From positions 1-54,648 of IMG/VR virus record IMGVR_UViG_3300025433_000326: a DNA stretch of 54,648 bases; one strand, 5' to 3'. Within the stretch, counting starts at the first letter, position 1, and each line of letters begins with the position of its first letter. Source of the DNA: a virus (lineage: Duplodnaviria > Caudoviricetes). Below are positions 562 through 52,010 of the stretch, one piece after another. The notes under the pieces are model-generated. The model was not told where the DNA came from. It saw only the letters and a list, made by a program, of their open reading frames with translations, and did no database searches. The position numbers were made by a program, and so were the translations under genes.

Positions 562-567
562 CAAGGG

Positions 568-661: not shown

Positions 662-663
662 GG

Positions 664-1146: not shown

Positions 1147-1154
1147 GCCGCCGC

Positions 1155-2439: not shown

Positions 2440-2457
2440 CGCCGTTGCGGCCTCAGA

Positions 2458-13049: not shown

Positions 13050-13098
13050 GGCTTCACCGGGGCCCTAGCTTGCTCTTAGCAGGGTGACAGGGCTACGG

Positions 13099-13497: not shown

Positions 13498-13500
13498 TCG

Positions 13501-14583: not shown

Positions 14584-14606
14584 CCTGAAGTCAACAGCAA
14601 CAGGTC

Positions 14607-32483: not shown

Positions 32484-32561
32484 ATGACCGACATCGACCT
32501 ATCAAATTTTGTTAACCAAGATGTTTGTGTTGAGCAACGTTCCAAGCGGCCCAACGCATGA
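32484..32561 (+). pseudogene. truncated 25-aa ORF ending inside the attC-like site
   Basis: MTDIDLSNFVNQDVCVEQRSKRPNA*; its TGA overlaps the methyltransferase ATG. Confidence 0.45.
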
Positions 32562-32618
32562 GTTCACCGATCCATAGCGAGGAACGAGCGGAGGATTCGG
32601 TGCAACGCCTTGTTCTGT
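32549..32618 (-). mobile_element. integron attC-like recombination site
   Basis: Minus strand: ACAGAAC-AAGGC-GTTGCACCGAATCC-...GCTCGTTCCTCGC...-GGATCGGTGAAC-TCATGC-GTTGGGC. It has AAC/GTT R boxes, unpaired spacers and two extrahelical bases. Confidence 0.8.
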
Positions 32619-35395: not shown

Positions 35396-35448
35396 AATTG
35401 AATTGTCCGCTGTTGAGTGAGTAACATCATGCCAGCAGGTTCCCTTCA

Positions 35449-36108
35449 ATGAGTAGCAAGCGTCCCGCCACTTTGCCGCCGTTGCCACCCACGACGATGA
35501 CAACCCTGGCAGCGCTGCTGCCGGATAGGAAGAACGCCCGGCGTCGAACGCAACGGTCCACAGGGATGATCGAGCGTTCTCTCTCTGAGTTCGGCGCGGC
35601 CCGGTCTGTGGTGATTGATGAGCACGGGACCCTCTTGGCCGGGAACGGCACCGCCGAGGCGGCCGCATCGATCGGGATTGAGCGGGTGCTCATTGTTCCG
35701 GTAGATGGCAACACGCTGGTGGCGGTCCAGCGTTCTGATCTAAATCCCGAACAGAAGGCCGAGTATGGCGTTGCTGACAACCGTTCGTCAGACACCTCAG
35801 GATTCAGCGGGGAAGCTCTCAACACCCTGCTGGAAGAGCACTCTGGCCTCGATCTCAGTCCTTACTTCACCGATGATGAGTTCAAAGCGCTGATCAGCGA
35901 CCTGGACCCACCTCCAGGCGATAAAGGGGGAGGGGAAGGAGCCAGCGCGGGCGGCCTCGAAGTCAAGCTGAGGTTTTCAACAGAGGAAGACCTGAGGGAG
36001 TTCCAGCAGCTGATGGTGAGGCTGGCCGAGGCAATGCCAGAGGAAGAGACGACAGAGGCGCGGCTGGTTCGAGCTGCTGAATCAATGCTGGCGAGGTTGG
36101 GCCGTTGA
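35449..36108 (+). CDS. ParB-like N-terminal domain protein
   Basis: KNARR...SLSEFGA...LAGNGT...GVADNR; typical of the region upstream of terminase. Confidence 0.8.
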   Translation: MSSKRPATLPPLPPTTMTTLAALLPDRKNARRRTQRSTGMIERSLSEFGAARSVVIDEHGTLLAGNGTAEAAASIGIERVLIVPVDGNTLVAVQRSDLNPEQKAEYGVADNRSSDTSGFSGEALNTLLEEHSGLDLSPYFTDDEFKALISDLDPPPGDKGGGEGASAGGLEVKLRFSTEEDLREFQQLMVRLAEAMPEEETTEARLVRAAESMLARLGR

Positions 36109-37463: not shown

Positions 37464-37884
37464 GGTCAAGGCCATCTCAAAGGCGGCTGAACGCCGCTAC
37501 CAGGTTCATGCCCTTCATCGCTGGGTGGTGCGCGATGGGTACGGGCCAAAGCAGCTGATGGACGCCGCCATCAAAGGCTGGAAGTGTTCCCCCCGGGTGG
37601 CCTCTGGATTGGTTGCCGAGGCCCTTGAGCTGTCGGTGACAGCGATCAGCCACTACGACCGCATTCGGATGGCATCTGTTCAGGTTGAGCGGATGGAGGC
37701 CCTGCTGCAGCGCTCCCTCCAGCAGGGTGAGCTCCAGGTGGCCCTGGGCGTCAATCGTGAGCTCAACGCCTTGATCTTCAAAGTGGCTGAGTTTGAAGCG
37801 GCTCAAGAGGAAGCGGCGGCCGCCATTGCCCCATCACTGACAGAGGAAGAGCAGGAAGCGGCTGATCGCGCCGGGGACTTCTAG
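37456..37884 (+). CDS. putative terminase small subunit
   Basis: Helical 142-aa protein immediately before terL. Confidence 0.5.
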   Translation: MAEVKAISKAAERRYQVHALHRWVVRDGYGPKQLMDAAIKGWKCSPRVASGLVAEALELSVTAISHYDRIRMASVQVERMEALLQRSLQQGELQVALGVNRELNALIFKVAEFEAAQEEAAAAIAPSLTEEEQEAADRAGDF

Positions 37885-37887
37885 CCC

Positions 37888-39429
37888 ATGGCATGGGATG
37901 ACAATGCGTGGGCTGAATACGACGCCAAGAATCGGGCCCTGATCACCCCCTACCAGTTCCCGCATCACGGCTTGCACCGCCCGCGCAAACGGGTGCAGCC
38001 CATCTTGCGGCACCTCCCGCGCAGGCCGCTCTTCACTGGATTGATCGGATCCAATCTGTGGGACAACCTGCCGAAGCAGTGGCCGCATTTCGCGGCGCGA
38101 ACAACAATTGCGTCTCAGGGGAAATACCTGCCCTTCATTCCCTGGGAGGTCCAGCTGGATCTGGTCCGAATGATTCGGAGCACCCAGAACGTTTACTGCC
38201 TGAAATCAAGGCAAACCGGCGTTTCCGAAACGGTCATCAATTACATGCTGATGATGGCCATTGAAAACCCAGCTTGGGTGGGCATCGTTTTCAGCAAGAC
38301 CGGCGAGGATGCGTCAGAGCTGGCGGCCCGCATCAAAGGCCAGGCGGCCAGCCTTGGTTCCTTCTGCCCGCCCCTGCCAAAGGATTCTGCCCGCAAGCTG
38401 CAATTCCTTGGCCGTGGATCGCTTCACTTTCTGCCGCCCACTGAACGAGCGGCCAGGGGAATCCCATCGGCCTCCATGGTCCTGTTCGATGAGGGCGCCT
38501 TCATTGAGAGGCTGAGCGGGATTGAAACCGGCGCCATGCCCACCCTGAGCCTCCTGGGCCCCAGGGCGCGGGCGGTGTGGGTCAGCACCCCCAACGGCCG
38601 CAGCGGCCGCTTCCATGAGCACTGGACCACTGATCACGGCGAAATCCCGCTAGGGCCGGCCACGGTGAACGGGATTCCAACCCTGGCCCGTTCACCCGAT
38701 GGTCAGTTCGGCAAGGTTGCGATCCACTGGAGCCAGCATCCAATCTTTGCCGCTGACCCTGACTACCAGGAGAAGACCAAGCGGAAGTTTCAGCTCACCC
38801 AGCAGCGCTACCAGCAAGAGTTTGAGCTCGACTTCACTGCCACCGATGCCGAGGTCTACCCGCACGAACTGATCGAGGCTGCTGAGGCCATCGGTGCCCT
38901 GGATGATCCAACCAGCGGGAACGTCTACGTGATCGGGATCGATCCCAACGGCGGCGCCGATGATGAGTTCGTGACCACGGTTCTGGACGTGACAGCCAGC
39001 CCCTGGCAGGTGGTGGCCCGGTTCAACGACTCGCGCCGCAGCAGGGATTACGGCCTGCAGCGCAGCGCCCGGCTGATTGACCAGTTCGCCCCGGAGCTGA
39101 TCGTCATCGAGAAGAACGGCGTGGGTGCTGCGGTGGCCGAGAGCCTGGCCCGGCTTCGCCCTGGATACCCGATCGAAGAGGTTGCCACCAGCCGGCCGTC
39201 GAAGGTCGCTATGACCGATCGGGTGCTGCTGCTGCTGGAGCAGGGCGAGCTGGGCCTGCCGCCCAACGACATCTACGGGGAACAGATGCGAGTCTTCCGC
39301 CAGCACCCAGACGGCACCCGCGAGGCCGCCGCTGGCGCGCACGATGATGCCGTGATGTCTCTGGCCATGGCCTGCGAGGCCGGCGCCCGCACCCGGCCGA
39401 TGGTGGCCGAATGGGTCAACATGACCTAG
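37888..39429 (+). CDS. terL: terminase large subunit
   Basis: LKSRQTGVSE (Walker A), VLFDEGAF (Walker B), STPNG, IGIDP, IEKNGVG, HDDAVMSLA. Confidence 0.95.
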   Translation: MAWDDNAWAEYDAKNRALITPYQFPHHGLHRPRKRVQPILRHLPRRPLFTGLIGSNLWDNLPKQWPHFAARTTIASQGKYLPFIPWEVQLDLVRMIRSTQNVYCLKSRQTGVSETVINYMLMMAIENPAWVGIVFSKTGEDASELAARIKGQAASLGSFCPPLPKDSARKLQFLGRGSLHFLPPTERAARGIPSASMVLFDEGAFIERLSGIETGAMPTLSLLGPRARAVWVSTPNGRSGRFHEHWTTDHGEIPLGPATVNGIPTLARSPDGQFGKVAIHWSQHPIFAADPDYQEKTKRKFQLTQQRYQQEFELDFTATDAEVYPHELIEAAEAIGALDDPTSGNVYVIGIDPNGGADDEFVTTVLDVTASPWQVVARFNDSRRSRDYGLQRSARLIDQFAPELIVIEKNGVGAAVAESLARLRPGYPIEEVATSRPSKVAMTDRVLLLLEQGELGLPPNDIYGEQMRVFRQHPDGTREAAAGAHDDAVMSLAMACEAGARTRPMVAEWVNMT

Positions 39430-39509
39430 GGCCGGCCTCTCGCTTGAGCGCCTGCAGCCCCAGGGCCCGGGCCTGATCAGCAGGGCTCCGCCCGCCCGGG
39501 TTCAGCGGT

Positions 39510-39806
39510 TCAGCGGCCATTGTCAGGCCCCTGATAGCGGCCTTCGAGCATCTCACCCCGCAGTTCTGGGCCTTGTGACTGATCCCAGAGCACCCGCAGC
39601 GTTCGCGGTTGCCCGCGGGTCCAGCTCACGGCACCCGCGGCTCTCAGCCCTAGCAGCGCCGCCTGGACGCTTGAGGTGGCCTTCAGGCCCCGCGCCCGCT
39701 GCAGATCCCGAACGGTGGGGGCGTAATCATGCCGGCGCCCGAAGGCTCGGATCGCTTCCAGCGTTTCCGCTTGGGGCCATGTGAGAGCTTCCTCTTGGGC
39801 GTCCAT
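39510..39806 (-). CDS. LexA-type DNA-binding domain only
   Basis: LTWPQ...YAPTVRDL...GLKATSSV...L...G...PRTLRVL; no protease domain. Confidence 0.8.
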   Translation of the reverse strand: MDAQEEALTWPQAETLEAIRAFGRRHDYAPTVRDLQRARGLKATSSVQAALLGLRAAGAVSWTRGQPRTLRVLWDQSQGPELRGEMLEGRYQGPDNGR

Positions 39807-39853
39807 CCTGCGGTTCTTTGCCTGTAAGTATGCACTCTACTGGCACACCTGCA

Positions 39854-40735
39854 CTAGCGTCGAAAGGTGCTGAACAGGCCCAGCTGGTCGCTTTCCCTGC
39901 CCTCCAAGCGTTCTCGCAGGTTGATGAGCCCGGAACGGCTGAGGCCTTTGGCCTGCTCCAGGCCCAGCCCCATCCCTCTGGCCACCTCGGCGAAGGTTTC
40001 GCCGTCAAGGCGCCGCAGCATCACCTCTTGCTGTTGTGGCCAGGGCGCCAGGGCGCAGCTGACTGCCTGCAATTGCTGCTGTCGCCGTGTTGAGGCATTG
40101 TTTGAGCTCGCCTGAATCGCTGTCAACAGCGTGTTGCTTTCGCTTTCGTCATCATTGATCAGGACATCCAGCGAGGCCTGCCTGTGGCAGGCTGCCGCCA
40201 GGGCCAGGGTCTGGAGGTCAGCAGGCGATAGATCCATCCCCGCCATTGCCTCTACATCGGTGGCCGGCCGGCCATGCTCAAGCTGGAACCGCTCCCGCCA
40301 CTGCCGCAGCTGGTGCATCCGTTCGCTTCGCTTCACCGGCACCCTGATGCCGTTGGCGGAATGGATCAACCGGATCATGCTCTGCCGGATCCAAGGCACG
40401 GCATAGGTCGAGAACTTGTAGCCGCGCATCGGGTCAAACTTTTCAACTGCTCGCGCCAGCCCGATCGAGCCCTCCTGGATCAGATCGGCGACATCCAGGG
40501 AGATGATGCCCGCGACATTGAAGGAGCGGCTGCACGTCACGACCAGCCGCATATTCCGGGCCACCATCTGCTCGCGGGACCGCAGCCCTGAACGCTTCAC
40601 CCGCAACGGGGCGTCAGCTGGCGACGGTGGCCAGTCTTGCCAGGCTCGAATGGCTCGGCCATGGATCAGTTGCTCTTCAAAGGAAGGGATTGGCAAGCGC
40701 GAGTACGCCTGTAGCTGATCGTCCAGCGAGCTCAC
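39854..40735 (-). CDS. sigma-70 family RNA polymerase sigma factor (RpoD/group 2-like)
   Basis: NMRLVV, DLIQEGSIGLARAVEKFDPMRGYKFSTYA.WIRQ, IRVP, region 4 HTH. Confidence 0.93.
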   Translation of the reverse strand: MSSLDDQLQAYSRLPIPSFEEQLIHGRAIRAWQDWPPSPADAPLRVKRSGLRSREQMVARNMRLVVTCSRSFNVAGIISLDVADLIQEGSIGLARAVEKFDPMRGYKFSTYAVPWIRQSMIRLIHSANGIRVPVKRSERMHQLRQWRERFQLEHGRPATDVEAMAGMDLSPADLQTLALAAACHRQASLDVLINDDESESNTLLTAIQASSNNASTRRQQQLQAVSCALAPWPQQQEVMLRRLDGETFAEVARGMGLGLEQAKGLSRSGLINLRERLEGRESDQLGLFSTFRR

Positions 40736-40840
40736 AAAGGGGAGGTCTAATCAGGCCGGCCCTACCCTACGGGGCTCGTCATCGTTGCTCAGCAATCAAC
40801 AGGGGCAGCATTAACCTGAAACCACGTAGAAGGCTACAGA

Positions 40841-42751
40841 TTGGCCATCGGATTCCTTCAGGATCAGGCGCCTGATTCCAACCGGATGGATGGGCCGCTG
40901 TTGAACGTGCTCACCGGCATGGGCACGTCCAACGACCGCAGCCAGGCCACTGGCATCCAGGGCGGCCGTGCTCTGGGCGAGGCAGAGATCAATGCGCTCT
41001 ATGAGCAATCCTGGCTGCTCCGCCGGGTGGTTGAGAAGATTCCCATGCAGGGCACCCGCAGCGGCTGGGACCTAGGCCTGGGCGATGAAACCACCACCAC
41101 CGAGCGCAGCAAGCTCGATGATCTGGTTAGTTGGACAGAAGAGCTGAAGCTGCCGCAGGCCGTGACCACTGCCGCCACCTACGCCCGCCTGTATGGCGGT
41201 GGTGCGCTGGTGGTGTTGGCGGATGATCGCACCCCCATCGACAAGCCGCTCAACCTCAAGCGGCTGCGCAGCATCAAGGGGTTCTACCCCATCGATCGCT
41301 GGAGGTTGTACCCGTCTGCAGGTTGGACGGGCATCGGTTCGCCTGAAAGCTATTGGTTTGAAACACAGCAGGATCGCGACCTGACGAAGGCTTCAGGCGA
41401 TCCAGGCCTGGCTGATGCGTTGCAGGTCGATATTCATGCCAGCCGCATCATCCGCTTTGAGGGCCTGCCCTGCAGCTGGCGCACCATGCAGTCGCGCCAA
41501 TGGTGGGGGCTGTCGGTGGTCGATCTGTGCTGGGACGTGTTCAAAAGGTTCGAGACAGGCCAGCAGAGCGCCGCGGACATCTTGCATGATTTTGATCTGG
41601 TGGTTCACACCCTCCCGAACCTGCAGCGGATTCTGGACGCGGGCGGCGAGCAGAAGCTGCGCGAACGGCTGCGAGTCAACAGCATGGCCAGGTCTGTCTA
41701 TGGGGCCTACGTCCTGGGCGAGGGCGAAACCCTGGCCAACCTCAGCCGATCAGCCGCAGGCATCGCCGACATCCTCGAAGGCCTGAAGGGCGAGATCACC
41801 GGTGCCTCAGGACTGCCCCACACCATTCTGTGGGGTGAAAGCCCCAGCGGCATGGGAGCAGATGGCCGCAGCGAGCAGGCCGCGTTTGGCAATGACGTGG
41901 CTGATTGGCAGGACCGCGATCTCCGGCCGCCCCTCCGCCGAGCGTTTGAGCTGGCCATGGCCTGCTCCGATGGGCCGTGGAAGGGGAAGGATCCACCGGA
42001 GAGCTGGGCGGTGGAGTTCCGCCCCAACTACACGCCAACAGAAGATGAGCAGGCTGATTTGCGCGGCAAGGTGGCCAACGCTGATGTTCAATACATCCAG
42101 GCCGGTGTGCTGTCGACCAACGAGGTGGCGCTGGCCCGCTTCGGCAAGCCGCGTTTCAGCCTCACGACGACGTTGATCGATCGCGAGGAAGATGGCAGCC
42201 TTAAGCAGCCAGAGCCTCCGGCCGGCGCTGCTGGCGATGAATCCGAGATTGAGTTCGGCGAAAGCCTGGCCGAGCAGGAGGCCGATCCAGGCGGTGCCCC
42301 CCCTGATCCAGAGGAAGAGCCCCCCTCGAGCCGGGGTGATCAGGCTGACGCCTGCTGTGACGATTGCGAGGCCCGATCCCAGGAGCTCGCCCTTTCAATC
42401 ACGGCGAACCGCCGCCGCCGCAAGCAGCGGAAGGACGCCCCGGCCATCCCCCGCGCTGACGCGGCCGGCGACGTGATCGAGCGCTGCGGGGTGAACATCC
42501 GAATTGATAGCCAGGGCCTCGGACGCATCCTTGCCCCCTATGGGCAGGAGCTGCCCCATCCGGTAGCGGTGGGCCCAGACATCAGCGGCGCCTGGGAGGT
42601 GTTTGAGCCATCGACTGGCGCCTACCTCCTGGCGATCGGCCACCAGCACGTCCGCGGCATCCGCGATTCAATCGGGCCAGGCCCCACGATCCGGCAGATC
42701 GATGGCACTGATCTGGTGGCCCTGGGGGCCCGCTGTGACGCCTATTCCTGA
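40841..42751 (+). CDS. portal protein (DUF1073-like) with C-terminal extension
   Basis: ARLYGG, IHASRII, WWGLSV, PHTILWGESPSG; located between terL and MuF. Confidence 0.88.
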   Translation: MAIGFLQDQAPDSNRMDGPLLNVLTGMGTSNDRSQATGIQGGRALGEAEINALYEQSWLLRRVVEKIPMQGTRSGWDLGLGDETTTTERSKLDDLVSWTEELKLPQAVTTAATYARLYGGGALVVLADDRTPIDKPLNLKRLRSIKGFYPIDRWRLYPSAGWTGIGSPESYWFETQQDRDLTKASGDPGLADALQVDIHASRIIRFEGLPCSWRTMQSRQWWGLSVVDLCWDVFKRFETGQQSAADILHDFDLVVHTLPNLQRILDAGGEQKLRERLRVNSMARSVYGAYVLGEGETLANLSRSAAGIADILEGLKGEITGASGLPHTILWGESPSGMGADGRSEQAAFGNDVADWQDRDLRPPLRRAFELAMACSDGPWKGKDPPESWAVEFRPNYTPTEDEQADLRGKVANADVQYIQAGVLSTNEVALARFGKPRFSLTTTLIDREEDGSLKQPEPPAGAAGDESEIEFGESLAEQEADPGGAPPDPEEEPPSSRGDQADACCDDCEARSQELALSITANRRRRKQRKDAPAIPRADAAGDVIERCGVNIRIDSQGLGRILAPYGQELPHPVAVGPDISGAWEVFEPSTGAYLLAIGHQHVRGIRDSIGPGPTIRQIDGTDLVALGARCDAYS

Positions 42752-44133
42752 TGGCTGATCGTTCCGTTGAACTGCTCGAGCATCTCGATCTGGAGATGCG
42801 TGGCCTGGAGGATCAGCAGCTCAAAAAGCTGCAGGGCATCTTCAACGAGGCCCTAAGCCGCACGATCCGCTCCCTGATCGACCGGCTGGAGAAGATCGAC
42901 GCCCAGCCGATCTACGATCCCAAGCGCACCCCAGGCGCCTTTCAAGGGTCAACGCCTGCAGGGCCCGAGATCATCACCCCGCTGCAAAAGAACCAGGCCA
43001 GCCTCTACCTCCAGGGCCAGCTGCTGCAGGATCTGCAGGTGATCATCGGTCGCTTCCCGCAGGACAAGGCCGCCGGCCGGGCCCTGGACACTGAACTGGT
43101 GGAGCTCTTCCGCCGCGCTCACGACCTGGGCAGCGAGTACGCCATTCAGCTCAGCCAGAACATGCTGGAGCCTGCGGCCAAGCTCTCGGCCACTCACCCG
43201 CTGATCACCCAGGCCGGCCAGGTGCCGCCGCCCGCAGCGCCTGCAGCACCAATCACCCCAGGCGGCGGCTACCAGGAAGGGCAGTCATTCACCCGGCTGG
43301 TCAACATCGGCGCAACGGTCGCCGCCGCCGAGCGTGATTTCAAGAGCCTGTCGGAGAACTACCGCCGGCAGCGCGATGCAGCCACCAGTGAACGGGTGGT
43401 CGCGGCGAAGGATTACTTCTATCGGTGGTGGCGTGACTGGGGCGATGCGGTGCAGGTGGAAACAGCCACCCAGCTGGCAACGGGCCTCGATAGCAGGGCG
43501 CTGGCCCGCACCCTCAAGGCAAGGCTGCCGAACATCAATGAGGCCTTCCGTAACCGGGCCGAGACAGTGGCCCGCACCGAAACCCACATCGCGGCCGGGG
43601 AGGCCAGAGAGCGCACGTTCCGCCGGGTTGGAGCTGGCTTTGTGCGCTACATCACCACGGCAGACGATCGGGTGTGCGAATGGTGCGCTCCACGGATGGG
43701 TTGTTTATACTGGGCAGGCAGTATTAAGACGCCGATTCATCCAAATTGTCGTTGTGCATTGTCACCTATTACCCTTGAATCGCTGGTGATTCAGAATAGC
43801 TTAGCGGCCAAGGCGTCAGAGCGCTGGGAGCAGGAGCAGCAGGCCCTGGCTGCCGTCACCCGCACCAAGTATGAGCAGGCCAACAGCAGGCCATGGCGGC
43901 CAACCGGTGGAGGTGACCAGCCAAGAGGCGCGGGCGATTTCCCGCTGATGGAGAAGACCAGCCTGCCGGCCACCCAGCGGCGCCGTGGGCCCGGTGCAGC
44001 GGTGGCGAATGCTGGCGCGCAGGCATGGCCTGCAGGCGATCCGGTGTGGGCTCCTGGGCGGGGCTGGCTGGATCAGGGGGCCCGGGTGGCCTATGAAGCG
44101 ATGGTCAGAGAGGTTGCTGAGATAGCGGAGTGA
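42751..44133 (+). CDS. head morphogenesis protein (MuF/SPP1 gp7-like)
   Basis: RAETVARTE, DDRVCEWC, PIHPNCRC. Confidence 0.88.
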   Translation: MADRSVELLEHLDLEMRGLEDQQLKKLQGIFNEALSRTIRSLIDRLEKIDAQPIYDPKRTPGAFQGSTPAGPEIITPLQKNQASLYLQGQLLQDLQVIIGRFPQDKAAGRALDTELVELFRRAHDLGSEYAIQLSQNMLEPAAKLSATHPLITQAGQVPPPAAPAAPITPGGGYQEGQSFTRLVNIGATVAAAERDFKSLSENYRRQRDAATSERVVAAKDYFYRWWRDWGDAVQVETATQLATGLDSRALARTLKARLPNINEAFRNRAETVARTETHIAAGEARERTFRRVGAGFVRYITTADDRVCEWCAPRMGCLYWAGSIKTPIHPNCRCALSPITLESLVIQNSLAAKASERWEQEQQALAAVTRTKYEQANSRPWRPTGGGDQPRGAGDFPLMEKTSLPATQRRRGPGAAVANAGAQAWPAGDPVWAPGRGWLDQGARVAYEAMVREVAEIAE

Positions 44134-44257
44134 CCACCTTGAGCGCAAGGGAATCATCTGGCAGGTGGATTTCGGCGAAACTTTTTTCAAGTTGTGCGTA
44201 ACCCTTAAATCTCGCAGTTGTTTCTTCATCCATAGCTGTAGAGGGTGGTAAGGGCAT
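44105..44257 (-). CDS. small hypothetical protein (50 aa)
   Basis: ATG directly after the CCACCGCTCCCCA leader motif. Confidence 0.4.
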   Translation of the reverse strand: MPLPPSTAMDEETTARFKGYAQLEKSFAEIHLPDDSLALKVVTPLSQQPL

Positions 44258-44286
44258 GTGTGGGGAGCGGTGGCTGTTGAGGTGGC

Positions 44287-44357
44287 GAACCTGTAAGCCC
44301 CCCTTACAGGTTCAAGCTTCCCCAATAAAGGAAGCGGTCATTTCCTTTATTGGGGAA
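44287..44357. promoter_or_regulatory. two adjacent perfect inverted repeats (11-5-11 and 16-8-16)
   Basis: GAACCTGTAAG-N5-CTTACAGGTTC and TTCCCCAATAAAGGAA-N8-TTCCTTTATTGGGGAA. Confidence 0.6.
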
Positions 44358-44434
44358 TCGCCTTCAGGGCTTGGCAAGCTCGCGCTCAAAAGCGGCAACG
44401 CATCGGCAATCTTCGGCGTGAGCCAGCAGCAGAT

Positions 44435-44500
44435 CGCTTTGCTCACCGGAAAATTAGGAGCGCAGCGAGTAATTTTTCCGAGTGCAGCAACTTGTTAAGT
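44435..44500 (-). mobile_element. integron attC-like site truncated at the crossover point
   Basis: Minus strand: ACTTAAC-AAG-TTGCTGCACTCGGAAAAATTA-CTCGCTGCGCTCC-TAATTTTCCGGTGAGCAA-AGC-G|ATCT. The methyltransferase stop codon lies inside R''. Confidence 0.85.
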
Positions 44501-45661
44501 GCTTTTGGGTTTGAGAACACGAAAAATGGATTGCCCGACTTTTTTCCCAAGCTCAGCAGGGACTGCATTTCCAAGTTGGCGCATTACTTCACCCCAAGAG
44601 CCTTCAAAGTCAAAGTCATCAGGAAATGTTTGAATTCTAGCGCTTTCACGAACAGTAAAGTAACGAACACTTCCATCTTCAAAACGAATCATATTCTCGC
44701 CTCCCGGAATACCATGCCCTCCAGCCTTCAACGCCTTGGAAGGCTCGTCAATATAACTGCCTGTATGGCCGGGATAGATTTTGGCACCACCTTTAAAAAC
44801 ATGATGGTTAAATTCATTAGCTTTTTTAGATTCAGGGTTAGGGAGATCTGAAATGGCATCGCGAACTGTGACCCATGGCTCCAACTCCGGTTCAAACATT
44901 CCATATTTTTGCTTTAACCTTTCTACTCTATTCTCTGTTTTTTCGTCCATTTTTGAGCATTGAACTTTATGCTTTTTCCAGTATTCTTTTGTAACCCATT
45001 TACTCCAGAGCAAAGCGTCCTCGGAGTGTGTTGACTGAGGAAACGACCAGTTTGCATCAACGTCTGACCTGAAACCAACGATAAATACCCGCTCTCTTTT
45101 TTGAGGGACGCCATAGTCTGCTGCATTTACAAGACGATACAATACGTTATATTCGAGATCTGCATACTTATTCTTAGTATGGTGTTTCTCTAATCGCTCT
45201 CGATGCTTTTCCCATTCTTCATTCCTTTTCTTTTCTATCGAGGGATATTGCAATTGTAATACTATATATTCAAAATATTCGAAAAAGCTTTTTCTCAACA
45301 AGCCTTTTACATTTTCAAATACGAATGCTCTTGGTTTTTTCTCTCTAATAGCCCTAACGGCTTCTGGAAACATATCTCTGGCGTCATCGTGGCCATTCGC
45401 TTTGCCGCCAAGGGAGAAAGGCTGGCAAGGTGGCCCACCTGATATTAATTCTATTGTTTCTGGTACGCTTAAATAATCGAACTTGGTTACATCACCTTCA
45501 TATACTCCAGCCCCCCGAGTAAGCAATTTATTTGCTCTTAGAGTTCGGCAAGCATCTTTGTTAAATTCAACTACTGCCTTTGGAGTAAAGCCGGCGCTGT
45601 GAAGCCCTAACGCTAACCCACCTGCACCTGCGAACAATTCAATTGAAGACATTTTAGCCAT
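44495..45661 (-). CDS. orphan DNA (cytosine-5)-methyltransferase, low GC
   Basis: LFAGAGG, GGPPCQPFS, ENV, QKRER, GNAVP motifs; sharply AT-rich compared with its flanks. Confidence 0.95.
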   Translation of the reverse strand: MAKMSSIELFAGAGGLALGLHSAGFTPKAVVEFNKDACRTLRANKLLTRGAGVYEGDVTKFDYLSVPETIELISGGPPCQPFSLGGKANGHDDARDMFPEAVRAIREKKPRAFVFENVKGLLRKSFFEYFEYIVLQLQYPSIEKKRNEEWEKHRERLEKHHTKNKYADLEYNVLYRLVNAADYGVPQKRERVFIVGFRSDVDANWSFPQSTHSEDALLWSKWVTKEYWKKHKVQCSKMDEKTENRVERLKQKYGMFEPELEPWVTVRDAISDLPNPESKKANEFNHHVFKGGAKIYPGHTGSYIDEPSKALKAGGHGIPGGENMIRFEDGSVRYFTVRESARIQTFPDDFDFEGSWGEVMRQLGNAVPAELGKKVGQSIFRVLKPKST

Positions 45662-45699
45662 TATCTAATTAACCTTCTTAACATTGTAACTAGCGATTT

Positions 45700-45749
45700 C
45701 TGGAGAGCGGTGGGACGTGGCCGGGCAAGCCCCGACGGGCTGTTGGTGG
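45700..45749 (-). repeat. conserved intergenic leader repeat (copy B)
   Basis: CACCAACAGCCC-GTCGGG-GCTTG-CCCGGC-CACGTCCCACCGCTCTCCAG. Confidence 0.8.
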
Positions 45750-45911
45750 TCAGTCGGTCCAACGGGCCCATTCATCGGGATCGGGGAAAGCCTCATCGTT
45801 TTCGCCAAACATGAGCACCCTGTTGTATGCAGCGATCTCGGCGGTGGTCAGGCCTTCATAGGGCTGTTTGCCCGCGGCGTAGTTGGCGTTCACTTTGTCT
45901 TTGGCGGTCAT
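45750..45911 (-). CDS. small hypothetical protein (53 aa)
   Basis: MTAKDKV...WTD, bounded by two leader repeats. Confidence 0.6.
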   Translation of the reverse strand: MTAKDKVNANYAAGKQPYEGLTTAEIAAYNRVLMFGENDEAFPDPDEWARWTD

Positions 45912-45914
45912 CAG

Positions 45915-45964
45915 CTGGGGAGCGGTGGGGCAAGTGCCAGACAAGCTCTGGCGGGCTGTTGGTG
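45915..45964 (-). repeat. conserved intergenic leader repeat (copy A)
   Basis: CACCAACAGCCC-GCCAGA-GCTTG-TCTGGC-ACTTGCCCCACCGCTCCCCAG. Confidence 0.8.
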
Positions 45965-46156
45965 TCAGGCAAAGCGGCCGGCCACGTTCCAATCAGGGTT
46001 TGGTTCGCCAGCCCTGCGGTAGTTTTCTTCAAACAGAGCATTCAGATTGCGAGCACCCAATCCTTGATGGCTTCGACAAATAAAGATTGCGCCTTCAATT
46101 GCGTGGTTGCTCATTGAATCAAGGTTGTAATCAAGGGCGATAAAAGCTGCGGGCAT
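45965..46156 (-). CDS. small hypothetical protein
   Basis: Preceded by the leader motif and an extended -10 promoter. Confidence 0.6.
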   Translation of the reverse strand: MPAAFIALDYNLDSMSNHAIEGAIFICRSHQGLGARNLNALFEENYRRAGEPNPDWNVAGRFA

Positions 46157-46200
46157 GGCTGGGGAGCGGTGGGGCGCGAAGGCCTCTCGCCTTCATTCAT

Positions 46201-46209
46201 ATTGTAGCA
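46201..46209 (-). promoter_or_regulatory. extended -10 promoter TGCTACAAT
   Basis: TGnTACAAT upstream of a hairpin and the leader motif. Confidence 0.6.
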
Positions 46210-46214
46210 CGTTG

Positions 46215-46463
46215 CTAACAGCAGGGATTATTCTCTTCCGCCCATTCCGCTGCCTCTTGCTCTGTCGCAAAAGGCCCAGCCCAGGTAACGATGCTGGCTT
46301 GCTCTCCCAACGGGCCGAGCGGGTGCCTGCGGAAAAAGCTGGCGCCTTGCTTCTGGATTGCTACCGCGTCAAGACCGTCCGCCAGGTCACCCCAGAAAAG
46401 GATGGCCGCTATCCAGCCATCAGGAGCAAGGCCTACATCTTCCGCCCAGCTGGCTTTGGTCAT
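46215..46463 (-). CDS. hypothetical protein
   Basis: ATGA-coupled; GPFATEQEA motif. Confidence 0.55.
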   Translation of the reverse strand: MTKASWAEDVGLAPDGWIAAILFWGDLADGLDAVAIQKQGASFFRRHPLGPLGEQASIVTWAGPFATEQEAAEWAEENNPCC

Positions 46464-46843
46464 CGCTGGAGGCCTTCGGCGGTGGACACCTGCCGGTCGA
46501 GCAGCTCCGCCAGAACAAGGTCGCCATCTTGTCTTGGTACGTTCTCCCAGCGGTGGCCTTCCATCCGCCAGAACACGATCAAGGGCATCGCGTCGCGCAT
46601 CGCCAGGATGTCTTCCAGCTTCATGTCCATCGACCAGTCAGTGACTGGTATCAGCAGCCGCCAGCCCGCCACTCCCCCGACAACGTGCTTCGCCAGGGAG
46701 GGCGAGCTGCAGGCCAGTTGGATTGGCCACCCGTAGACATCAACTCGATCGGGGAAAGTGCTGCAGCGAACGCCGATGATCACGCCGGGCTTTCCCCAAG
46801 CAACGGACGCGATCAGGGGCCTCTGAGATTTCAATGGCATCAC
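46460..46843 (-). CDS. hypothetical protein
   Basis: 127-aa ORF in the leftward island. Confidence 0.55.
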   Translation of the reverse strand: MMPLKSQRPLIASVAWGKPGVIIGVRCSTFPDRVDVYGWPIQLACSSPSLAKHVVGGVAGWRLLIPVTDWSMDMKLEDILAMRDAMPLIVFWRMEGHRWENVPRQDGDLVLAELLDRQVSTAEGLQR

Positions 46844-46870
46844 ACGGTTACCGACAATTTGGAGCGGCGC

Positions 46871-47236
46871 TCACGCCAACGCACTTCTGACCTGTCGCCG
46901 GCTGATGCCCAGGTGCCTTGAAATGCGGCGCTGGCTCCAGCCATCACTGAACAGCAGGGCTACGATCGAAACGGCCGAGTTTTGAACTGTCAAGCCTGGC
47001 TTGACAGTTGGAACCTCTGGCCCAACTACCGAGGATTCCTCGGCAGTTGAAATCTTGAGCCCAGTTGCCCCTGTGAGCGTGTGCGGGTGTGCCCAGGCAG
47101 CCAGCCAGTCGTTCAGCCTGTGGACGGCCTCGCCCAGGCTGTAGCCGGCGACGTAGGCCACCACAGCAACGGCGGCGATAGCGCGGATGGTCGCTTCAAT
47201 GCTTTGGCCCCAATCGGCCTTGATCATGTCTTTCAT
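46871..47236 (-). CDS. membrane-anchored protein with C-terminal HTH
   Basis: Hydrophobic segment; GWSQRRISRHLGISRRQVR; leader motif upstream. Confidence 0.65.
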   Translation of the reverse strand: MKDMIKADWGQSIEATIRAIAAVAVVAYVAGYSLGEAVHRLNDWLAAWAHPHTLTGATGLKISTAEESSVVGPEVPTVKPGLTVQNSAVSIVALLFSDGWSQRRISRHLGISRRQVRSALA

Positions 47237-47477
47237 TTCGCTGGGGAGCGGTGGGATTTGCCGGCGGCGCCTGTAGCGCGCTCAGCGGCCACACCATAGC
47301 CCAGAAAATGCGATCCGCCAGCTGCTGCTCACGTCATTTCCCGGCGGATCAGCGGCCGCGTTGTCGTTGGCCGCGTTTGGCCCTGGCGGGCCCCCTCGCG
47401 GCGGATCGCGTCCTGCTCTGCTGCGCTCAAACGCACATAGGCCGGCCGGCGCAAGGCAAAGCCGTCTTCTGCCAGAG

Positions 47478-47795
47478 TCAAAGCGCCTGCCCTTTCGAGG
47501 CCTGGTAGGCGCGCACCAGCTCCCGGCCGCACAACTCGGCGGTGGCGTTGGCGGCAAGCCGGCCGAAGTCTGGGTCACGGGTGGACGAGCCCCAGAGGCT
47601 GCGCACCCCGTCAACGCCCAGCACCATGGCCCGGGAGAAGGGGACGCCGGCTCGCAGCGCTTGGCAGGTCACAATGGCCGTGTGCCAGGCAGCCGTGACG
47701 GGATCAGCCTTGCTCACCGGCATCAGGCCAATGGCGGCACCAAGGCCCAAGGCGGTGAGGTTGATCAGGATCAGGGTCGAGGTGGATGGTTTCAT
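47478..47795 (-). CDS. small secreted hypothetical protein
   Basis: Signal-like N-terminus, two Cys; CTCCCCAGCGAA-ATG leader. Confidence 0.6.
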   Translation of the reverse strand: MKPSTSTLILINLTALGLGAAIGLMPVSKADPVTAAWHTAIVTCQALRAGVPFSRAMVLGVDGVRSLWGSSTRDPDFGRLAANATAELCGRELVRAYQASKGQAL

Positions 47796-47877
47796 TTCGC
47801 TGGGGAGGGACACGGCCGAAATTGTAGCCGCTTCCATAGCTCACGTGTATCATTCGTTGGCACTTGCCTGATTCGCA

Positions 47878-48141
47878 ATGAAACCCTCCAGCCCCGTCCT
47901 GCCTGATCTGTCGCGCCCCCAGCGGCGCATGGCCGAACCTCGCACCGCCTTCCCGCGCACCCGCCGCCGCACCCGCAGCCAGCAGCGGCCGGCCGCTTCC
48001 CCGGCCTTGCGCCAGAACTGGATTGGGATGGCGATCGTTGCCGGTTCAGCTGCTCTCACTATTGGTGGCCTGGTGGTGTTCAGCGGCATTCGCGACAGCC
48101 AGGCTTTGCGGTCGCCCGTACCCGCAGCGCTGCAGCCATAA
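47878..48141 (+). CDS. small membrane protein
   Basis: Basic N-terminus and one TM segment; TATCAT 30 nt upstream. Confidence 0.55.
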   Translation: MKPSSPVLPDLSRPQRRMAEPRTAFPRTRRRTRSQQRPAASPALRQNWIGMAIVAGSAALTIGGLVVFSGIRDSQALRSPVPAALQP

Positions 48142-48184
48142 AGGCGGGGAGGCTTAGCCTCGGAGCAGCACGTCACTTCCAGCC

Positions 48185-48454
48185 ATGACTATCGCTGATC
48201 GGCTCCACGCGGCCACCGGACTGAAGCGCTTCCTCGCCACCGTTGGCCCAATCGAAGCCGTTCAAGCAATGGAGGATGCGATCAAGCTGCTCCGGGAAAA
48301 GCCCAAGCTCTCGGCAGCTGAAATAGTGGAAGAGCTGGAGGCGATTGCCCTGGCGCCGCCGGCCGCCCCGAAGCCGCCCGCGCCGATCGCCCCCAAGCCC
48401 CCATCCAAGGCTGTGCAACCACTGAAAGAGAAGGCGCCGGATCCTCAGCCCTAG
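48185..48454 (+). CDS. hypothetical protein
   Basis: 89 aa with a Pro/Lys-rich tail. Confidence 0.55.
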   Translation: MTIADRLHAATGLKRFLATVGPIEAVQAMEDAIKLLREKPKLSAAEIVEELEAIALAPPAAPKPPAPIAPKPPSKAVQPLKEKAPDPQP

Positions 48455-48625
48455 ACTGAAGGCGGCTACGGCACCTACGACGAAGAAGGCCTGGAGATCA
48501 CCCCGCCGACCCGACTCAGCGGGTACTACGTGAACGTGCATGGCCGCCTTCCACCTGAGGCTGAGGCATTCCGCGTCCGCTATGGCATCGCTGGTTACTT
48601 GCTGGCTGGAGGCGTGAGCGAAGCC
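48455..48625 (+). pseudogene. startless remnant of a tail-associated-type gene
   Basis: GTYDEEGLEITPPTRLSGYYVNV in frame after the TAG of 48185..48454. Confidence 0.4.
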
Positions 48626-49045
48626 CTAGCGACCTATGAAAGTTCCAAGGAACAACCGAAACAGAATCACCCATCGGTTCCAAGGATGCTTAAAGCTGTG
48701 CTTGTATTTGGAAGCCGTGTAATAGCCTCTGTCTGATCGGATGCCTAGGATGTTGTCTATGTATTCTTTCTTGTATTCAAGAACGGTGTGATTGCCCCGG
48801 CGGCCATCCTCAACAATCGTGCAGTAGTGGAAGACAACATTCTTGCCGCCAAACAGTAGGTTGCGTAGGAACACTGAGAAGCGCTTGTCCGAGATAAGCC
48901 ACAGAATCGTGGCTATGTAGTCTTCACAATTACCCCTTGCCGACTCTTTCCGGGTATCAAGAATGTGCCACGGATCCAAGCCTGGCCTGTCAGGCCGATA
49001 CTGGAAAACCTTGTTCAGGGTGTAGGCGGCTTCCTGGAGGTGCAT
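48626..49045 (-). CDS. transglutaminase-like cysteine protease-fold protein
   Basis: GNCEDY, GNHTVL, YIDN (Cys-His-Asp); lower GC. Confidence 0.65.
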   Translation of the reverse strand: MHLQEAAYTLNKVFQYRPDRPGLDPWHILDTRKESARGNCEDYIATILWLISDKRFSVFLRNLLFGGKNVVFHYCTIVEDGRRGNHTVLEYKKEYIDNILGIRSDRGYYTASKYKHSFKHPWNRWVILFRLFLGTFIGR

Positions 49046-49150
49046 GGATCAGTGATCAGACGGTTCATTATCAGGTTATTGGCCCTTTCCCTGCAGCTTG
49101 ATCAGCCACGGAGCGGGCCCATACTGAGTTCAAGGCAAGACAAGTCAGAG

Positions 49151-49411
49151 ATGGATCGGCGGCAGGAGATGGTTCAGCTGGCCACCCAGCTCTTGATGGA
49201 GCAGATCAACCCGGTGCGGATTCTTTCAATGAGCGATGAGGGCGGGATCCCGTCCGGCACCTTCGAGAGCAACCGCCAGCAGTTCACCTTCAAGTTCACC
49301 CGCTCCGGCCTGGTCACGTACAAGCCCCAGCGGCAGGGATCTGCTGGCCGGGAAGACAGTGGGCTCTCTGATCGCTTGGCCCGGCTTCAGGATCGCTTGA
49401 GCTCGCTGTGA
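49151..49411 (+). CDS. head-region hypothetical protein
   Basis: ATG 49151; overlaps the next start. Confidence 0.6.
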   Translation: MDRRQEMVQLATQLLMEQINPVRILSMSDEGGIPSGTFESNRQQFTFKFTRSGLVTYKPQRQGSAGREDSGLSDRLARLQDRLSSL

Positions 49412-49806
49412 GCATGTTCTCCAGGATTGTCGCCGCAACAGTTGATCCGTTCGCTCGGCGGGCGGCCGCCACGTTCAGCGCTGAGGTGACCACCCAGGTG
49501 CGGGTCACCCTGGCGGTGGAGCTCCAGAATGCAGAGCTGCAACTGCAGCGAGCAGGCCAACGCCTGGGTGACCAGATCAGGATTGCCGCGGCCGGATCGT
49601 TGGGCCGATCGCTTGATCCATTGCGCGAAGAGCTGGCCAAGGTGTCGCGGGTAGCAGATGCCCTGGCCGTCTACGGGTTGGCGCGACCTGTGCCGCAGGA
49701 GAGTGAATCGCCGCATCAGCAGGCGGTGTTGCAGGCCCAGGCGGAGCAGGTCGAGGGCCGGCTGCTGCTGGTGGTTCCGCCTGGTGGCCAAGAGGTGGAT
49801 CGATGA
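49408..49806 (+). CDS. head-region hypothetical protein
   Basis: Coupled at both ends. Confidence 0.55.
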   Translation: MSMFSRIVAATVDPFARRAAATFSAEVTTQVRVTLAVELQNAELQLQRAGQRLGDQIRIAAAGSLGRSLDPLREELAKVSRVADALAVYGLARPVPQESESPHQQAVLQAQAEQVEGRLLLVVPPGGQEVDR

Positions 49807-52010
49807 AGAGCTCTGACGGCCTGCGGAATCGCCTGGCGGCCGTGGAAGCGTTGCTGCCAGTCCGGGACCACCCCGGTCCCAGCCCGGCCCCTCGATGGGA
49901 CCATGCCGATCAGGTGAGCTTGCTGGTGCAGCAAGTCATGGCGGAGGCCAGGCCCGGGGCGTTGGTGCTGGATTGGCAGCTGGCGCCGCGTGGCGTGGTG
50001 GCAGGGCGGATGGCTGTGGACGGCCTGCTCTACCGGTTTCGCTGCGATGCTGACGTGGTGGCGTTTCGCCCGGCGTGGGACGGGGTGAATGAGCGCAGCT
50101 GGGAGATCCGATCTGATTCGTTTCTGCAGCTTCGGGCCCCTGAACAGCGCCTGGATTTTCGTGGCGGCGCGGTGCGGGCGGGGAAGAAGTGCAGCGTTGG
50201 CTATGGCTGCGGGAACAAGTGCATCACGGTGCGGAAGGAGTGCCTGGTCAGGCCAGGCAGTGCGATCGGGAAGGGTCGCCTGAAGAGGCTGCTGGCCCTG
50301 GCTGCTGGAGGTGATAAAGCCGCGGCCGGCGCGGCCCAGCGGGTGACTGCCGGCCGTGGGTCCAAGGCGGCAGAGCTGCGTCAGGGGCGCAATGTGAAGC
50401 GGCTGGAGGCCTTGCTGCAGCGGCCTGAGATTGCCGAAATGGTGCGGACCGGCAAGGTGCCCGAGAGCAAGCCAAAAGCTGGCGCTGTGCGCGACCTGTC
50501 GCCGGATGAGATCGAGTTTGATCCTGCGCGCTTCCAATACAAGATCAAAGCGACAGCGACCACCGGGGAGGTGGGAAGCCTTTCGGGCGTGAAGAAGTGG
50601 GACCCGAACCTGGCGGGGGTGATCAGCGTCTGGCAGGACGCCGATGGGAAGACCTACGTGGTCAATGGTCACAACCGCCTGGCCCTGGCCCGCCGCCTGG
50701 GCGCCGAGGCGGTGACCGTGAGATACCTGGACGCCCCGACCGCGAAGGACGCCCGGGCGATCGGCGCCATGCAGAACATCGCCGAGGGCGCCGGCACACC
50801 AATGGACGCGGCGAAGTTTTTCCGGGATACCGGCATTCAAACGCCTGCTGACGTAGAGGCCCGTGGGTTGCCGCTTAACAGCGGCCAGGCGGATAAGGGC
50901 CTGCGGCTCAGCAAGCTGCCCGATGACGTGTTCAAGGCGGTGGTGGATGGTGATCTGAGCATCAACCGCGGGGCGATCATCGGCGGCTCTGGCCTGGAGG
51001 CAGGCAAGCAGCAGGAGATTTTCAAGATGGTCAGCAGCCGGCGGGGGATCACCGACAAGACCCTGAGCGAGCTGGTGGATCACGCCCGCATCAGCGAGCA
51101 GCAGACCCAGACCACCTTCGACCTGTTCGGTTCAAGCGAGGTGTCAAAGAGCAACCTGATCACCCGCGCCAAGCTCTCGGCAGGCCTGAAATCGAAGATC
51201 AGCCGAGAGAAGCGGCTATTTGGCACGGTCAGCAAGGCCCGATCAGCGGCCTCGTTGACGGAGAAAGCCGGGAACGTGATCAATCAGGAGGCCAGCAGCA
51301 GGGTGACCGCCGAAGCCGGGCAGGCGCTGCAGGTGTTCGAGCAACTCAAGAGCACCGCCGGCCCGATCAGCACCGCGCTGAACCGGGCAGCTGATCGGGT
51401 GGAAGCAGGAGAACCAGAGAGCGAAGTGCGCAAAGAGCTTGAATCTGACGTGTTCGCCGCGGTGGAGTTTGAGCTGGAGGCCGTTGGCCTGCGCCCGCGT
51501 AAAAGCGCCTTTGACCGGGCCGATGGCGATTCGGCCGACTATTACCGCAACAACCCAGAAGCAAGGGAGAAAAAGAATGCTCTGCAGCGAAAGATCAACC
51601 GCCGCCCAGATCGGCTTTGGACGGAGCGGCGGCGGCGCGGAATGGCTGGCCAAGGTGGCCCGGATCTGAGCCACACGGAAGATGATCGGCTGATCAAGGA
51701 AGACCCCAAAGCGAACCGGGCCCGTAATGGCCACGACGGCCGCAGCACCAAGCGGGCTGACAGCCTCCAGGAGCGGATTGATCGAGCGAAGGCAAAAGCG
51801 CCCCCTGGCCAGATGGGGCTGTTCGGTGCTGCCGGCGGCGGCAATGACATCCCCTGCGGGGCTTCGCACATCAGCCGGGCCAAGACTTGCCGGATTACGT
51901 CAGGAGCTCCGGCAGCACCGGCGCCAGCCGTGAAGGCTGAGAAGGCCGCGGCCACCACGGCCCCACCACCTTCTCCCCTGCAGCTTCCCGCTCCGCCAGC
52001 TCCAGGTTGA
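49803..52010 (+). CDS. modular protein: Cys motifs, ParB-like domain, degenerate HNH-like module
   Basis: KKC..G.GCG.KCI...KEC, DPARFQYK...YVVNGHNRLALA, GGPDLSH...ANRARN, CGASHIS..KTC. Confidence 0.75.
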   Translation: MKSSDGLRNRLAAVEALLPVRDHPGPSPAPRWDHADQVSLLVQQVMAEARPGALVLDWQLAPRGVVAGRMAVDGLLYRFRCDADVVAFRPAWDGVNERSWEIRSDSFLQLRAPEQRLDFRGGAVRAGKKCSVGYGCGNKCITVRKECLVRPGSAIGKGRLKRLLALAAGGDKAAAGAAQRVTAGRGSKAAELRQGRNVKRLEALLQRPEIAEMVRTGKVPESKPKAGAVRDLSPDEIEFDPARFQYKIKATATTGEVGSLSGVKKWDPNLAGVISVWQDADGKTYVVNGHNRLALARRLGAEAVTVRYLDAPTAKDARAIGAMQNIAEGAGTPMDAAKFFRDTGIQTPADVEARGLPLNSGQADKGLRLSKLPDDVFKAVVDGDLSINRGAIIGGSGLEAGKQQEIFKMVSSRRGITDKTLSELVDHARISEQQTQTTFDLFGSSEVSKSNLITRAKLSAGLKSKISREKRLFGTVSKARSAASLTEKAGNVINQEASSRVTAEAGQALQVFEQLKSTAGPISTALNRAADRVEAGEPESEVRKELESDVFAAVEFELEAVGLRPRKSAFDRADGDSADYYRNNPEAREKKNALQRKINRRPDRLWTERRRRGMAGQGGPDLSHTEDDRLIKEDPKANRARNGHDGRSTKRADSLQERIDRAKAKAPPGQMGLFGAAGGGNDIPCGASHISRAKTCRITSGAPAAPAPAVKAEKAAATTAPPPSPLQLPAPPAPG

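Follow-up and report, generated by a model that had tools for sequence, protein, structure and literature searches.

How does a DNA methyltransferase gene that carries an integron recombination site come to lie among the small genes of a phage? The question is raised by the virus record IMGVR_UViG_3300025433_000326 (Duplodnaviria; Caudoviricetes), whose whole 54,648-nt sequence was analysed and is called the window below. It is a single record with terminase, portal, Mu F-like, tail-fibre and replication genes. On its minus strand, an intact gene for a 5-methylcytosine (m5C) DNA methyltransferase of 388 aa (44495..45661) is followed by a palindrome (44435..44500) which is a genuine integron attC site. 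The locus is a truncated SALIN (a single integron cassette outside an integron) in a phage; it stems from a restriction-modification cassette, and a stub of the endonuclease gene is still visible. We consider it probable that an integron integrase captured the cassette at a secondary site and that an illegitimate deletion then left an orphan M.Eco29kI-like methylase behind a phage leader.

A preliminary description of this stretch had proposed an AT-rich methylase cassette with two readable junctions, inserted by an integrase just downstream of a phage leader repeat. The gene assignment and the base composition were borne out: the protein matches Pfam PF00145 (DNA_methylase) with an E value of 1.3e-66, the GC content is 0.37-0.45 across the insert and 0.60-0.70 on both flanks, and the gene itself has ~40 % GC compared to 63 % for the phage. 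An insertion of the integrase type was also supported, by the attC alignment and by an unoccupied allele which together place the right crossover at G/AT (here and below a slash marks the point of crossover). The simple one-gene cassette with two readable junctions had to be given up, as the donor cassette has two genes and the left join is an illegitimate one in a run of A.

The attC site, the right junction and the unoccupied allele

The attC (44435..44500, minus strand) begins with the R'' box ACTTAAC (44500-44494), which conforms to RYYYAAC, recurs in the bacterial donor loci L009, L010 and L012 described below and, as had been noted before, contains the stop codon of the methylase. An imperfect L''/L' stem with bulges follows, and the site ends in the crossover G at 44435. 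At this right junction the minus strand reads ...GAGCAAAGCG and then ATCTGC, and the phage-side sequence directly after the attC is ATCTGCTGCTGG. The earlier placement of the attC end at ...AAAGCG/ATCT was correct; it lies at 44435/44434 and is fixed by the unoccupied allele in contig L006. The window does not have an R' box G/TTRRRY complementary to R'' but G/ATCTGC, and alignment to other attCs shows this box to be a hybrid, G 44435 being derived from the attC and ATCTGC from the phage. Such a hybrid R' box is as expected after recombination with a non-att site. In the donors, the R' box at the 3' end is G/TTAGG or G/TTAGT, and the cassette starts with G/TTAAGT.

The window attC is 65/66 identical to that of a Rheinheimera metagenome-assembled genome (MAG; L012, 5237-5302), in which the same cassette lies beside an integron integrase gene, and 93.5 % identical to the attC after estX, the first cassette gene of a class 1 array. 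BLASTN of 44360-44520 gave 633 plasmid records matching 44435-44496 (557 at 90-95 % identity, 74 at 80-90 %, and one each at 95-99 % and 60-80 %). A match was also obtained to a phage-plasmid P1 isolate (transconjugant 2, L001), directly 3' of the first cassette coding sequence of its array, the order of which is estX-psp-aadA2-cmlA1-aadA1-qacH (PMC9892861, section 3.2; here and below, cited sources are used for the parts of their text available to us). From the AAC at 44496, continuing AAGTTGCTGCAC..., to ...GGTGAGCAARGCG and the G at 44435, the minus strand of the window is near-identical to four plasmid or phage-plasmid attCs, that of L001 among them; after the crossover G, these four continue with TTA, in agreement with G/TTRRRY, whereas the window continues with ATCT.

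The preliminary description had itself named a terminator as the reading that would undo the attC. A covariance model made from nine attCs of other records, with the window excluded, matched 44431-44500 (minus strand) with 71 bits and an E value of 1e-14; it had one further, weak match in the window (23.9 bits, E 0.0055), and a terminator scan of 44000-47400 gave no terminator-like site at 44435-44500. When folded as bottom-strand DNA, intact relatives of the site form an R stem that a spacer separates from an L stem with three bulges. The corresponding fold of the window (44429-44500, plus strand) has the L stem and three bulges as in the intact sites of L012, L009 and L001, and has lost the R stem alone.

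Further searches with the site were of low sensitivity. A scan for strict RYYYAAC...GTTRRRY hairpins had 0 matches in the window, and it also missed most of the known attCs of L001 and L012, being too insensitive. An exact 17-mer of the attC core, which is a very insensitive test, was found at 4 loci in IMG/VR, namely the known cassette contig, two chance matches without attC context and contig L070; it gives no evidence for this attC family being common in viral contigs. In L070 (IMGVR_UViG_2718217953_000001, 1400-1500) an attC-like centre is 89 % identical over 47 nt to 44441-44487, and the ends differ. The genes of the phage and of the Rheinheimera cassette are only 73 % identical in spite of their nearly identical attCs, and in L010 the same gene pair (83 % nucleotide identity) is followed by a different attC (7162-7234). 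Given this mismatch between attC and gene identities, the attCs seem to have been swapped or homogenised on their own, apart from the genes.

The unoccupied site was obtained by an IMG/VR scan with the neighbouring Mu F-like protein, which gave three contigs with a 100 % identical protein. In L006, positions 1-9685 correspond to window 34751-44435 (99.63 %) and positions 9806-16424 to window 45697-52293 (99.12 %), so that L006 has 120 nt in the place of the 1261 nt at window 44436-45696. From 44435 downwards the window is identical to L006, which at the right junction reads ...GACCGTG/ATCTGCTG... The consensus of attG, the secondary site, is 5'-GWT-3' with cleavage after the G (bioRxiv 10.1101/2022.09.11.507474), and the G/AT of L006 fits it. 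Removal of the insert had been predicted to restore G/ATCT, and L006 indeed reads GTG/ATCT. As a check of both junctions, for which an empty allele had been sought, L006 gave the right breakpoint as predicted and a left breakpoint which differs from the prediction.

The target was an open reading frame (ORF) of 63 aa (MPLSP...ELAKP and stop), which is intact in the empty allele (L006:9614-9805, minus strand) behind the leader CCACCGCTCTCCAGAAA and is broken in codon 41. Codons 1-40 (120 nt) are deleted in the window. The remnant at 44364..44434 (minus strand) has no start codon and comprises 22 codons and the stop (...LLLAHAEDCRCVAAFERELAKP), preceded by 2 nt of codon 41. The frame that the preliminary description had restored across the site was right for DLLLAHAEDCRCVAAFERELAKP up to the stop, which are residues 41-63 of the intact ORF, and wrong for ALQKSL, which belongs to the untranslated leader.

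In two metagenome runs, X3 and X4, the filled and the empty allele occur together, each run having a 1321-nt unitig with the cassette and a 180-nt unitig with the empty form (30 + 120 + 30 nt), split at 44435 and 45697; the depths of the cassette and empty forms were 18.5 and 13.6 in X3 and 19.8 and 23.4 in X4. For runs X18 and X15 the cassette form alone is listed, in single contigs of 1903 and 1911 nt which span both junctions; run contigs show presence only, not absence. All of the listed runs (24/24, salt lake metagenome, 2017-2018) hold 97-98 % of the sampled words, and they are not independent, since they share one habitat label, may include the source of the window and may be one campaign. 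That the AT-rich segment was mis-joined to a phage contig during assembly is scarcely credible. The sharp change in GC content and a contig (L058) that ends exactly at 44435 would suit such a chimera, but the same junctions occur in the independent IMG/VR contig L005, which has the cassette with 1 mismatch in 1501 nt, and in separately assembled contigs of 4/4 runs, including the two that span the whole insert.

The donor cassette and the left junction

A genome scan with the methylase gave 45 loci, the best of which are gammaproteobacterial. The amino acid identities to the phage enzyme are 95 % in a Porticoccaceae MAG (L009), 90 % in L010, 86 % in Oceanobacter (L011), 76 % in Rheinheimera (L012) and 73 % in Pseudomonas anguilliseptica (L013). 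The whole insert, 45699-44435, aligns with L009 5339-6603 at 93.1 % identity. Just upstream of the methylase, the donors have a gene for a GIY-YIG endonuclease of the Eco29kI family (in L009 ORF 4762-5373, with E values of 1.6e-49 for Pfam RE_Eco29kI and 2.2e-43 for Eco29kIR in PDB). Such a gene adjoins the methylase in 42/45 loci and is missed in L052 as well as in L021 and L036, whose methylase genes start no more than ~140 nt from a contig end.

The mutual homology of L009, L010 and L011 starts exactly at G/TTAAGT, the perfect complement of the R'' box ACTTAAC. This start delimits a cassette of ~1892 nt in L009 (4712-6603), of which the phage keeps the 3' 1261-1262 nt; the cassette start is ~630 nt upstream of the retained part. 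In L012, the restriction-modification cassette follows an attC at 3348-3406, ~575 nt from an integron integrase gene at 1879-2826 (458.7 bits, cut-off 265), and in L010 an attC stands immediately before the cassette. The integrase of the L009 genome (G001, contig L064) has next to it an attC that belongs to this family (83.8 bits), and an integron integrase scored over the cut-off in 3/5 donor genomes. In L009 itself the complete cassette (4700-6610) is situated by the housekeeping genes metG, an mrp-like ATPase gene and dcd, with the flanks ...CACTG/TTAAGT and ...GGCG/TTAGG; no attC was detected upstream of it in L009 and the integrase is on another contig. It is possibly another secondary-site insertion, in a chromosome.

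The left junction of the phage insert (45696..45697) is of a different kind. There the phage sequence CCAGAAA is joined to the donor sequence TCGCTAG in an A-run common to both, the BLAST breakpoints being 45697 with L006 and 45699 with L009. The A-run of the phage is CCAGAAAATG, the empty allele reads CCAGAAAATGCCC, and the three nearest donors have TAAAATCGC or TAAAATTGC at this point. As the A-run offers 3-4 nt of microhomology and the join has no G/TT character, we regard the left junction as an illegitimate one and not as an integrase product. A complete cassette with a left junction of target G/TTRRRY is absent from the window, which lacks ~630 nt of cassette sequence and 120 nt of target. 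Of the endonuclease gene, only the last ~33 nt (...IASYNVKKVN and stop; 45665..45696, minus strand) are present, and these align with the endonuclease 3' ends of L009, L010 and L011. The ribosome-binding site of the methylase, AAGAAGG (45679-45673, minus strand), lies inside this remnant. That no cognate endonuclease is present had been stated correctly from the start; the window has no such gene beside the methylase, as an Eco29kI-type system would, but the 33 nt alone.

The preliminary description had placed the left junction further in, at G/TTACAA (45690) or G/TTAAGA (45682), which would make the insert a complete, promoterless one-gene cassette without loss of target sequence. The motifs GTTAAGA (45682-45676) and GTTACAA (45690-45684) do stand at these positions, and GTTAAGA is 6/7 complementary to R''. 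Both, however, lie inside homology to the donor endonuclease that runs through to 45699, the alignment with the empty allele, which has 120 extra nt, starts again at 45697, and the real donor cassette starts at G/TTAAGT ~630 nt upstream. The empty allele and the donor alignments refute this reading, to which we attach a negligible probability.

The two junctions also bear on the question whether an integrase took part at all. Its action at the right junction is very likely, because this junction coincides with the only bond cut by integron integrases and because the target is a GWT site. As no tyrosine recombinase was found in the window (0 matches to PF00589 in the 54,648-nt record), the integrase would have come from a host. 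Were both junctions instead illegitimate microhomology joins, it would be a coincidence that the right breakpoint lies at the crossover point of the attC. In favour of this, the left junction is of such a kind, and one base (G) only is shared at the right one. Against it, the right junction is situated at the single integrase cleavage position, after the G of R', with a phage partner, G/AT, that fits GWT. By rough inference and not by a computed test, the coincidence would amount to ~1e-4 (one of some hundreds of breakpoints times ~1/32 for GWT), and we consider a history without integrase very unlikely.

The orphan methylase and the history of the insert

The methylase looks functional, as its motifs are kept and the dN/dS ratio to its closest relative, L009, is 0.08 (dN 0.021, dS 0.259). 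The motifs are FAGAGG at residue 10, PPCQ at 77, ENV at 116, QKRER at 187 and GNAV at 364, which we take to be motifs I (FxGxG), IV (PCQ), VI (ENV), VIII (QxRxR) and X (GNAV), respectively. Over 359 aa, the phage enzyme shows 52.4 % identity to a methylase encoded by the E. coli plasmid NZ_CP075729, and across the variable region (residues 200-340) the figure is 52.5 %; the endonuclease of this plasmid is identical to Eco29kIR at 137/138 positions over the part tested. The recognition site of Eco29kI is CCGCGG (PMC1952068). The window has 46 CCGCGG sites, compared to 42-51 expected, and the phage would thus be heavily exposed to an Eco29kI-type enzyme unless modified. Judged by homology, the phage methylase probably modifies CCGCGG and would protect the 46 sites from restriction of the Eco29kI/SacII type, and anti-restriction is its likeliest role. 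Other short palindromes also deviate in the window: CGCGCG (13.1 expected with a Markov model) and TCCGGA (6.9 expected) occur 0 times, and GATC, CCWGG and GGCC are over-represented. The absence of CGCGCG and TCCGGA may reflect an avoidance of restriction sites unrelated to CCGCGG.

In the history that we favour, a circular cassette of ~1.9 kb, with an Eco29kI-like endonuclease gene, the m5C methyltransferase gene and the attC, would have been inserted into the phage genome when a host integron integrase recombined the folded attC with a double-stranded attG-type site, G/AT, inside the 63-aa early ORF. A second, illegitimate deletion of ~750 nt with its ends in short A-runs would then have taken away codons 1-40 of the ORF together with the 5' end of the cassette and all but the last stretch of the endonuclease gene. 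In this way the methylase, an orphan with a ribosome-binding site of its own, would have replaced the start of the lost ORF directly behind the leader repeat, which presumably supplies transcription, and the cassette would now be trapped, because its R' box is a hybrid.

The same final sequence could be reached through different intermediates in an equal number of events. In a kind of integron 'specialised transduction', an attC of a host array would recombine with the phage G/AT and fuse the replicating phage into the array, from which an illegitimate excision in A-runs would pick up 1261 nt and drop 120 nt. The phage genome would thus enter the array as a giant 'cassette' and leave with neighbouring cassette DNA. 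This would account for an insert that starts inside the cassette and not at G/TTAAGT, its right junction is likewise an integrase crossover, and IMG/VR classes the record as a provirus although it has no integrase gene. Against it, the illegitimate join would pair sites a whole phage genome apart, a local deletion of ~750 nt being the commoner event, and no phage-array cointegrate was seen; the reaction shown experimentally is the insertion of circular cassettes at GWT sites (bioRxiv 10.1101/2022.09.11.507474). We favour the local insertion and deletion over the array fusion because the insertion of cassettes at GWT sites has been demonstrated and because short deletions occur more often, and we consider the fusion rather unlikely. 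If it did occur, it would be an integron-based specialised transduction by which the defence store of the integron leaks the antidote half of a system, the methylase, to phages; the likelihood of such leakage is correspondingly low, well below even. Under either history, the deletion endpoint leaves the whole leader and the donor ribosome-binding site intact.

Several observations weigh against the insertion-deletion history, or against parts of it. The left junction is one A short of a clean deletion between the phage AAAAT and the AAAAT of the three closest donors. An allele with the complete cassette was not seen among 5 phage contigs and 4 runs (contigs show presence, not absence), so that the order of the two steps is a reconstruction. 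A scan of metagenomes with the Mu F-like protein yielded no contigs beyond two that were already implied. The closest donors are gammaproteobacteria with a GC content of 45-55 %, whereas by its portal protein the phage comes closest, among cultured phages, to a Synechococcus siphovirus (36 % identity); other relatives are metagenomic, which is insufficient for naming a host, and no integron-bearing host was tied to the phage by the portal comparison or the metagenome relatives. The CCGCGG specificity is derived from 52 % identity to M.Eco29kI and from the 41-45 % identity of the donor endonuclease to Eco29kIR, and at such distances targets can differ. CCGCGG is not depleted in the phage, which is compatible with vulnerability and is no evidence of past selection, and the contig data are silent on methylation and expression.

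Insertion at attG sites is known mainly from the laboratory, together with inference from lone attCs in bacterial genomes. SALINs were defined for bacterial genomes, as single integron cassettes outside integrons at 5'-GWT-3' sites, and the older cases of the aadB cassette at secondary sites in RSF1010 and pRAY are cited in the same work (bioRxiv 10.1101/2022.09.11.507474). The phage locus resembles SALINs in having a single attC with no integrase nearby, a crossover after the G of R' and a G/AT target, and also in its position just downstream of resident expression signals and in an attC that has kept the L stem and has a hybrid R' box. It differs from them in that the recipient is a phage genome and not a chromosome or plasmid, and in that the cassette is truncated at the 5' end with 120 nt of the target lost, so that the left G/TTRRRY junction is absent. 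In addition, both the filled and the empty phage alleles are seen in natural populations.

Qi et al. (2023) described attCs, CALINs and integrons in phages and proposed five cassette-borne DNA methyltransferases as anti-restriction cargo (PMC9892861). Their minimum for a CALIN was two attCs, and the methyltransferases were of N6/N4 and other families, not PF00145; in the available text there are no empty alleles or crossover-level junctions, and the route of entry is left open, with homologous or illegitimate recombination suggested (PMC9892861). The present locus is like those cases in joining a phage-borne attC to a cassette methylase. Unlike them, it has a single attC, a methylase of PF00145, an empty allele and a junction read at the level of the crossover. 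In the open-access literature, attCs and methylase cassettes are known in phages, and we found there no junction-level insertion at a secondary site in a phage and no phage methylase derived from a restriction-modification cassette.

In the Eco29kI system itself, the R gene precedes M in an operon and the M promoter is situated 227 bp upstream, inside R (PMC3113576). The donor cassettes have the same order of R then M, and their endonuclease matches Eco29kIR as given above. Unlike Eco29kI, which is carried by a small ColE1-type plasmid, the system of the donors forms an integron cassette and has an attC. The phage differs further in that it keeps M and 33 nt of R, and the region equivalent to the M promoter is deleted; the expression of the methylase would for this reason have to depend on phage signals.

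The endonuclease remnant shows that the orphan methylase of the phage was derived directly from a complete restriction-modification system. In the survey of Oliveira et al. (2014), solitary methylases and complete systems were largely independent gene sets, rarely linked by recent decay (PMC4176335). The phage enzyme is like the solitary methyltransferases of phages in having no endonuclease and in its presumed role as an antidote to host restriction; it departs from the picture of that survey in the direct descent documented by the remnant, and so provides a concrete route for a derivation which the survey judged uncommon (PMC4176335).

The locus is a natural case in a phage in which all parts are readable, i.e. 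the donor cassette, the unoccupied site, the integrase-type crossover, the endonuclease stub and both alleles. Integron cassette arrays are now regarded as reservoirs of systems that defend against phages. With its two near-identical alleles, the phage offers a simple system for comparing methylation and sensitivity to restriction at CCGCGG.

The leader repeat and the surrounding phage genes

The leader repeat CCACCGCTCTCCAGAAA (45697..45713, minus strand) is retained phage sequence, and in the empty allele it stands directly before the ATG of the 63-aa ORF; that the insert lies directly behind it was seen correctly in the preliminary description. On the minus strand, CCCACCGCTC(C/T)CCAG has five exact copies, at 44262-44273, 45702-45713, 45917-45928, 46161-46172 and 47243-47254, with a start codon 2-6 nt after the repeat in the four intact cases. 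Weaker copies are found on the plus strand at 28919-28930 and 28974-28985. The search gave 7 matches compared to 1.18 expected, and 7 was reached by 0/100 shuffles. A short hairpin usually precedes the repeat, a Shine-Dalgarno sequence is lacking, and small minus-strand genes follow. The repeat may serve as a processing site or as the site of a regulator, or it may be a promoter, specific to the phage, from which near-leaderless mRNAs are made.

The genes around the insert have few known relatives. BLASTN of 43000-47500 against 50,697 phage records gave no relative of the phage backbone, the matches being methylase fragments and the P1 attC only. The 63-aa target ORF and five neighbouring small ORFs had no PHROG family, and four neighbours (45750-45992, 45965-46156, 46215-46463 and 46460-46843) had no Pfam family. 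In the same small-gene region, 44115-44273 and 45749-46146 are further presence/absence variants: a joint skipping 157 nt and ending at the leader repeat occurs in runs X18 and X15, a joint skipping 396 nt in run X18, and an alternative sequence upstream of 45749 in run X4. These variants are tentative, since their sides are shorter than 30 nt. Gene turnover seems to be concentrated in the small-gene region.

Both alleles have a hairpin with a 14-bp stem at 44321-44356 (CCCCAATAAAGGAA ... TTCCTTTATTGGGG), situated between the small-gene block and the convergent structural genes. It has no T-run and may terminate transcription in both directions. A second DNA methyltransferase gene is located at 32558-33688 on the plus strand (phrog_67, E 9.4e-62). 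Opposite its start, at 32549-32618 on the minus strand, lies the weak match to the attC model mentioned above, the score of which has a rough calibration; it is probably due to chance, because its R'' does not fit RYYYAAC. Finally, the ORF at 36105-37463 contains a tandem array of ~153-nt units at 36144-36746, as seen from self-matches at offsets of ~153 nt.

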